Under the pieces are notes generated by a model. That model had not been told where the DNA came from. It did not search any database and was given only the letters and a program-made list of their open reading frames with translations. The position numbers and the translations under genes were made by a program. Below are positions 35,425 through 36,477 of a DNA stretch of 64,000 nucleotides, piece after piece. Origin of the DNA: Escherichia coli (GTDB lineage Bacteria; Pseudomonadota; Gammaproteobacteria; Enterobacterales; Enterobacteriaceae); assembly GCF_045037415.1 (NCBI RefSeq), contig NZ_CP173438.1; one strand, 5' to 3'. Every line of letters starts with the position of its first letter. The stretch's first letter is position 1.

Positions 35425-36477
35425 ATGAAAAAGACAGCTATCGCGATTGCAGTGGCACTGGCTGGTTTCGCTACCGTAGCGCAGGCCGCTCCGAAAGATA
35501 ACACCTGGTACACTGGTGCTAAACTGGGCTGGTCCCAGTACCATGACACTGGTTTTATTCCTAACAATGGTCCGACCCACGAAAACCAACTGGGTGCAGG
35601 TGCTTTTGGTGGTTACCAGGTTAACCCGTATGTTGGCTTTGAAATGGGTTACGACTGGTTAGGTCGTATGCCGTACAAAGGCGACAACATCAACGGCGCA
35701 TACAAAGCTCAGGGCGTTCAGCTGACCGCTAAACTGGGTTACCCAATCACTGACGATCTGGACATCTACACTCGTCTGGGTGGTATGGTATGGCGTGCAG
35801 ACACCAAGGCTAACGTACCTGGTGGCGCATCCTTTAAAGACCACGACACCGGCGTTTCTCCGGTCTTCGCTGGCGGTGTTGAGTATGCGATCACTCCCGA
35901 AATCGCTACCCGTCTGGAATACCAGTGGACCAACAACATCGGTGATGCACACACCATCGGCACTCGTCCGGACAACGGCATGCTGAGCCTGGGTGTTTCC
36001 TACCGTTTCGGTCAGGGCGAAGCAGCTCCAGTAGTTGCTCCGGCTCCAGCTCCGGCACCGGAAGTACAGACCAAGCACTTCACTCTGAAGTCTGACGTTC
36101 TGTTCACCTTCAACAAAGCAACCCTGAAACCGGAAGGTCAGGCTGCTCTGGATCAGCTGTACAGCCAGCTGAGCAACCTGGATCCGAAAGACGGTTCCGT
36201 AGTTGTTCTGGGTTACACTGACCGCATCGGTTCTGACGCTTATAACCAGGCTCTGTCCGAGCGTCGTGCTCAGTCCGTTGTTGATTACCTGATCTCTAAA
36301 GGTATCCCGGCAGACAAAATCTCCGCACGTGGTATGGGCGAATCCAACCCGGTTACTGGCAACACCTGTGACAACGTGAAACAGCGTGCTGCACTGATCG
36401 ATTGCCTGGCTCCGGATCGTCGCGTAGAGATCGAAGTTAAAGGCATCAAAGACGTTGTAACTCAGCCGCAGGCTTAA
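35425..36477 (+). CDS. ompA: Outer-membrane protein A OmpA (variant surface-loop allele)
   Basis: 350 aa from [21 protein letters not shown]; beta-barrel plus OmpA-like C-terminal domain; loops read FIPNNG, DNING and [13 protein letters not shown]. Confidence 0.95.

Follow-up and report, generated by a model that had tools for sequence, protein, structure and literature searches.

The ompA gene in the DNA analysed here (a stretch of 64,000 nucleotides of Escherichia coli contig NZ_CP173438.1, hereinafter the window) encodes a protein with surface loops that differ from those of the K-12 protein, which raises the question whether this is a novelty of the strain, with a receptor specificity of its own, or an established form of OmpA. 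The most likely answer, to which we assign a probability of about 0.93, is that this is the ordinary chromosomal ompA of an ST131-type E. coli carrying the long isoform, with a changed recognition profile at the loop crown.

The 350-aa product matches the NCBIfam equivalog NF008071 ('porin OmpA') over residues 1-350 with a score of 675.2 bits (cutoff 277) and has the two-domain layout of OmpA, namely, an N-terminal 8-stranded barrel (Pfam OmpA_membrane, PF01389, at 23-199), a Pro/Ala linker and a C-terminal peptidoglycan-binding domain (OmpA, PF00691, at 226-321). The gene order yccS-sxy-sulA-ompA-matP-ycbZ-fabA is that of K-12, including the conserved sulA-ompA-matP context, and strains SA186 and JJ1887 have an annotated ompA with exactly the same DNA (100% identity; RefSeq protein WP_001346420.1). 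The locus comprises the following elements:

35070..35424, plus strand: sulA-ompA intergenic region, 98.9% identical to K-12 in a pairwise alignment
35425..36477, plus strand: ompA coding sequence, a single intact open reading frame of 350 aa with the ATG at 35425 and the stop codon ending at 36477
35425..35487, plus strand: signal peptide of 21 aa, the same as in K-12 when aligned
36491..36520, plus strand: intrinsic terminator of ompA, a CCCCGC/GCGGGG stem extended by A/U pairs, with a UGCU loop, followed by 8 U

The cleavage site of the signal peptide is taken from K-12 OmpA, such that the mature protein presumably begins with APKDNTW. By analogy with K-12 ompA, we take the sulA-ompA intergenic region to hold the ompA promoter and a long 5' UTR; a consensus promoter scan of the window returned no convincing ompA promoter on the plus strand. 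Compared to K-12, this intergenic region contains 3 substitutions and a 1-nt deletion. The deletion, at about 35357, lies in the 5' UTR and shortens a run of C (CCCC vs CCCCC in K-12), the 3 substitutions being located farther upstream; elsewhere, the 5' UTR is the same as in K-12. The terminator hairpin became apparent on RNA folding (-20.5 kcal/mol, z = -4.3), and a simple terminator scan did not pick it up at 36491-36520.

To compare the protein with its K-12 counterpart, we fetched the OmpA locus of K-12 MG1655 (gene at 3001-4041 of the fetched locus; 346 aa) and aligned the two proteins pairwise. The window OmpA differs from the K-12 protein by 9 substitutions and a 4-residue insertion, with 337 of the 346 aligned residues identical; the lengths of 350 aa and, in K-12, 346 aa that had been proposed in an earlier, sequence-only reading of this DNA are thus borne out. 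The differences are located as follows (mature numbering):

35554..35571, plus strand: loop 1, FIPNNG (FINNNG in K-12), with N25P at codon 35560-35562
35683..35697, plus strand: loop 2, DNING (SVENG in K-12), with S66D, V67N and E68I
35809..35847, plus strand: loop 3, 13 residues (SNVYGKNHD in K-12), with S108A, Y111P, the insertion GASF and N114D
36106..36108, plus strand: N203T in the periplasmic domain, FTFNKA (FNFNKA in K-12), from the protein alignment
36250..36252, plus strand: G251A in the periplasmic OmpA-C-like domain, NQALSERR (NQGLSERR in K-12), from the protein alignment

The GASF insertion is coded at 35824-35835 (plus strand). All three loop variants named in the sequence-only reading are exact, as are the K-12 loops that it had used for comparison, and the single periplasmic changes that it had mentioned are N203T and G251A; of its loop coordinates, those of loop 3 are exact and those of loops 1 and 2 were one base off, the correct ones being those given above. 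Identity to K-12 OmpA, which would have left that reading without a subject, is not what the exact alignment returned. No difference from K-12 is present in the signal peptide, the barrel strands, the turns, loop 4 (GDAHTIG, including G154) or the 13-residue Pro/Ala linker, and the periplasmic domain matches that of K-12 apart from these two changes.

Nucleotide identity to K-12 is 95.0% for ompA but 96.9-99.2% for the genes and intergenic regions on either side, from yccS to fabA (the adjacent sxy, sulA, matP and ycbZ having 97.8-99.2%), the 75-bp ompA-matP spacer being the exception with 94.3%. Three patches of about 50 nt at the loop tips, which cover 51 of the 346 aligned codons, account for 7 of the 9 substitutions and for 11 of the 24 codons that differ synonymously (binomial P of about 4e-5 and 3e-4, respectively, both lenient because the patches were drawn after the data had been seen). 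The clustering of the ompA differences in the three patches is non-random.

When aligned to the known allele classes, as the sequence-only reading had suggested, the window OmpA falls in a catalogued class, (III, delta). It contains the residues of the outer-loop pattern III, namely, P25, DNI66-68, the 11-residue motif in loop 3, and H rather than N in loop 4, together with those of the linker/dimerisation pattern delta, A175, T203 and A251; both patterns were defined by Liao et al. in 2017 (PMC5413513, Tables 3A and 3B), where T203 belongs to the beta, delta and gamma patterns, and A251 to delta and gamma. The same allele goes by several other names. The combination (III, delta) is C1 of Nielsen 2020, with n=41 in the pooled isolates (Liao 2022, PMC9560509), the ompA2 class of Power 2006 covers the long allele, as far as that work is summarised in PMC9560509, and the name 'OmpA-long' comes from a nanobody study of 2025 (PMC12259851). 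Residues 22-195 of the window protein are identical to chain A of PDB 9FZD, the crystallised transmembrane domain of OmpA-long. Every defining residue is the same across OmpA-long, ompA2, (III, delta), C1 and 9FZD, and we found no difference that would set the window allele apart. Compared to the K-12 protein (P0A910-type; pattern I, alpha; 'OmpA-short'; PDB 1BXW, 1QJP and 9FZC), the gene, the locus and the scaffold are the same, the differences being those listed above (N25P, SVE66-68DNI, S108A, Y111P, the additional GASF, N114D, N203T and G251A). Thus, the window ompA is the common 'long' isoform, which has already been described and is not new.

The genomic background of this allele can be specified as well. 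Between positions 24000 and 48000, many ST131 / O25b:H4 genomes match the window with 100% identity and, compared to the ST131 strain JJ1887, the window is 100% identical over 1-11201 and 99.994% identical over 11100-60900. Given this near-identity to JJ1887 and the O25b:H4 genomes, the source is an ST131-type strain of phylogroup B2; the ST131 and phylogroup B2 status of the compared strains is taken partly from the names of the records (O25b:H4, O25b:H4-ST131) and partly from the general background on these strains. Long-loop ompA is one of the two major E. coli OmpA isoforms and is typical of ST131.

What the loop differences mean for the function of the protein can be outlined from the structure of OmpA, in which a barrel of eight beta-strands bears four surface loops and is connected through a Pro/Ala linker to a peptidoglycan-binding domain in the periplasm. 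Within the barrel, the differences from K-12 are restricted to the tips of loops 1-3, so that the housekeeping roles would be unchanged and the surface epitope would be altered. With its scaffold and periplasmic anchor as in K-12, the protein most likely has the same structural role there and here. Recognition could be expected to change for those ligands that dock on the loop crown, such as some Gp38 adhesins of T-even phages as well as antibodies and nanobodies, and possibly also for OmpA-dependent colicins; ligands that depend on loop 4, where G154 is needed by TraN of the F plasmid, would be less affected. In an ST131 strain with O-antigen and capsule, OmpA is in any case partly shielded from such ligands.

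The claim of the sequence-only reading that the OmpA loops are receptor determinants agrees with the literature, in which phage adhesins, nanobodies and the conjugation protein TraN are documented to make contact with these loops. In one study, eight natural, numbered OmpA variants were expressed in an isogenic MG1655 delta-ompA background (PMC12032242): phages with 'type 2' Gp38 infect 3 of the 8 variants and those with 'type 1' infect all 8. The same paper mentions E89 of loop 2 when comparing variants 1, 3 and 4, a hint that these may be of the short, SVE type. Strains with ompA2 showed reduced phage sensitivity and decreased lysis (Power 2006, to the extent that it is summarised in PMC9560509). 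In ST131 itself, strains with a truncated ompA are resistant to phage HP3 as well as to HP3.1, which was evolved from it (PMC8092219), and therefore the long isoform is a working phage receptor in its native background.

With respect to nanobodies, Nb01 and Nb39 touch all four loops, with extensive contacts to loop 3, and show no cross-reaction between isoforms: Nb39 binds OmpA-long, and Nb01 is a short-isoform nanobody that does not recognise the long one (PMC12259851). Because the barrel of the window protein is identical to the 9FZD antigen, it is expected to bind Nb39. In conjugation, the substitution G154D blocks mating-pair stabilisation by F TraN-gamma, and it also blocks some phages (PMC10516633). 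Since loop 4, including G154, is the same as in K-12, the ability of the window strain to act as an F recipient is predicted to be unchanged compared to K-12.

The receptor specificity different from that of K-12 which the sequence-only reading had predicted is therefore supported as a property of the allele class, given the isogenic phage and nanobody experiments, but it depends on the adhesin and is not general, seeing that all eight variants are infected by type 1 Gp38 phages; for K3, Ox2 and colicins, which that reading had named, a difference would be a prediction. Similarly, not every surface phenotype differs between OmpA isoforms, as patterns I and II showed no difference in attachment to corn stover (Liao 2017, PMC5413513). 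For the window strain, we infer a phage and colicin profile that probably differs from that of K-12 because of OmpA.

These two observations, equal attachment of patterns I and II and infection of all variants by type 1 phages, would also be compatible with neutral drift in loops that are structurally unconstrained, with no consequence for the receptor. Such an explanation is nevertheless very unlikely to be correct. It is at odds with the complete lack of cross-reaction between isoform-specific nanobodies and with the finding that, in otherwise isogenic strains, type 2 Gp38 phages infect only some of the variants. Positions 25, 66-68 and 108-114, where the changes occur, coincide with or lie next to residues 25, 70 and 110, which, with residue 154, are the phage-resistance positions of OmpA cited in PMC12032242. 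Furthermore, rather than a continuum, the loops show a small number of discrete haplotypes that are repeatedly found at high frequency (PMC5413513), and the gathering of synonymous differences beside the loops is a better fit to old linked haplotypes than to recent drift.

To estimate how common the long loop 3 is, we searched complete E. coli genomes with a 45-nt probe from this loop using blastn, and obtained matches in 2128 of 5426 genomes (39%); this count replaces that of an earlier megablast search (1687 genomes), an undercount caused by the 28-nt word. The complete 1053-nt allele is present in identical form in about 420-560 genomes (some 8-10% of the complete ones), as judged from the ranks of the rows with 100% identity. 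Sources of the long loop 3 include humans, cattle, pigs, horses, deer, chickens, water and vegetables, and the matches also include O121, STEC and environmental strains. With so many sources represented, the frequency of 39% is not merely the result of over-representation of ST131. It is close to the values of earlier surveys by PCR and sequencing, in which 43% and 41% of the isolates carried the long form.

We then asked how the loops compare with those of related species. A scan for OmpA relatives with one genome per GTDB species, in which 80 loci were listed (E. fergusonii and the E. coli type strain being outside this set), shows that OmpA loops are generally hypervariable across the family and that, among these loci, both length classes of loop 3 are widespread (9 residues in 41 of the 80, 13-14 residues in 32). 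Loop 2, DNING, and an 11-residue stretch of loop 3 are present without any change in the type strain of E. albertii as well as in Citrobacter amalonaticus; C. freundii, Leclercia and Salmonella enterica subsp. arizonae and diarizonae have minor variants. Like the window protein, OmpA of E. albertii, C. amalonaticus and S. enterica subsp. arizonae consists of 350 aa with DNING in loop 2. The similarity extends to the DNA. In the 51 nt of the loop 2 patch, the window has 1-2 differences from E. albertii, C. amalonaticus and S. arizonae (2 for S. arizonae), compared to 10 from K-12. In the loop 3 patch, which is 54 nt long, there are 1-2 differences from E. albertii and C. amalonaticus and 9 from S. 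arizonae; here, K-12 differs at 8 of 42 nt in addition to the 12-nt indel. The sister-species genes are not the same allele throughout. Loop 3 of S. arizonae is SNTPGGASYKD, loop 1 of E. albertii and C. amalonaticus has D or N where the window has P, and there are more synonymous and C-terminal differences, for a total of 33-92 nt over the whole gene.

The K-12-type loop 2, SVEN, was found among the listed loci only in distant genera such as Buttiauxella. Thus, with loops 2 and 3 nearly shared with the nearest relatives, K-12 and not the window allele is the outlier; judging from these comparisons, the long forms of loops 2 and 3 are old and widely shared, and the K-12 form deviant. The periplasmic residues have the opposite polarity. 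At residue 203, most outgroups have N and, at residue 251, G is present in every outgroup inspected from E. albertii, Salmonella and Citrobacter, with A251 found in none of the 22 compared sequences (0/22); therefore, A251 is a derived state, and T203 and especially A251 are derived in the lineage of the window. With regard to the distribution of the K-12-like loop, SVEN(G) was observed in Buttiauxella species and SVDN(G) in Raoultella and related genera, at three loci of Buttiauxella and six of Raoultella, Buttiauxella and others taken together; the absence of an SVEN-type loop 2 from the nearest relatives of E. coli among the listed loci raises the question of the origin of the K-12 haplotype.

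The same comparisons bear on the possibility that this strain or ST131 recently acquired the loop variants as an adaptive novelty, for example through phage escape or import from another species. Two features of the gene would fit such a scenario: ompA is less similar to K-12 than the adjacent sxy, sulA, matP and ycbZ, and its divergence is concentrated in short patches, as imported segments would show. However, the same loop 3 occurs in 39% of the complete genomes, in many hosts and pathotypes, the long form was already present at 41-43% in the 2006 and 2017 surveys, and the DNA of loops 2 and 3 is nearly the same in E. albertii, C. amalonaticus and S. arizonae. A recent origin is, accordingly, even less credible than neutral drift, and we reject recent horizontal import or ST131-specific novelty on the grounds of frequency and sharing with sister species. 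The framing of the allele in the sequence-only reading as a departure from K-12 is misleading for the same reasons, since this is one of two major isoforms, found in 39% of the genomes, with loops 2 and 3 common to sister species. That the 4-residue difference might be a sequencing or assembly artefact, or stem from a wrong reference sequence, can be dismissed, as the difference stands against the fetched and aligned K-12 sequence, hundreds of independent complete genomes contain the identical 1053-nt allele, the long-isoform protein has been crystallised (9FZD), and our search for support of this explanation found none.

Returning to the long isoform as an established allele, a possible, tentative extension is that the long/short dimorphism of OmpA is an old balanced polymorphism in which the K-12 form is derived; we consider this rather less probable than its negation. 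Under this scenario, the haplotypes would persist in three patches of about 50 nt that recombine and have an excess of synonymous divergence on either side, a pattern that would be the expected signature of long-term, phage-driven, frequency-dependent selection on a receptor. The synonymous clustering near the loops is compatible with such old, recombining and selected haplotypes. The polarity, with K-12 as the outlier, is the sole, modest addition of this analysis to what has been published; the allele surveys consulted do not make it explicit. If the dimorphism is indeed balanced, ompA would offer a small natural system in which selection of this type could be measured.

The relevance of these findings is mainly practical, given that the facts on the isoforms are already known. 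The OmpA isoform predicts recognition by OmpA-dependent phages, by nanobody and antibody reagents and by OmpA-loop vaccines, and the long allele is carried by the pandemic ST131, where OmpA is implicated as a receptor for the therapeutic phage HP3 and for HP3.1, evolved from it. K-12 is not representative of E. coli at the OmpA surface.

In the course of the searches, we also noticed a few plasmid records, e.g. NZ_CP097216.1 (4668 bp), that contain ompA-like barrel fragments with 90% identity to query bases 199-554, annotated as 'outer membrane beta-barrel protein', and some E. coli genomes with two ompA places.

Several other features of the window can be described briefly. The torS gene at 8346-11089 (plus strand) is annotated as a frameshifted pseudogene in JJ1887, which is 100% identical to the window in this region, and the long open reading frame stops at 11078, 11 nt short of where the annotation ends, which points to a frameshift close to the 3' end of this gene for a TMAO sensor kinase. 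The segment 1878-2120 (plus strand) contains two adjoining matches to the Rfam family naRNA4 (CssrE, REP-derived) at 1935-2013 and 2036-2114 and matches itself at an offset of 101 nt with 91.5% identity; it is therefore a tandem REP/BIME-type repeat, located between torD and cbpM. At 12796-13218 (minus strand), there is a full-length match (160 bits) to the cspA thermoregulator RNA family upstream of cspG, in a cold-shock cluster of cspG, cspH, ymcE and gnsA. Finally, two ordinary features are a tRNA at 23764-23848 (plus strand; tRNA-Ser in the JJ1887 annotation) between hyaA and yccA, and a PyrD leader RNA at 50571-50644 (minus strand) upstream of pyrD.
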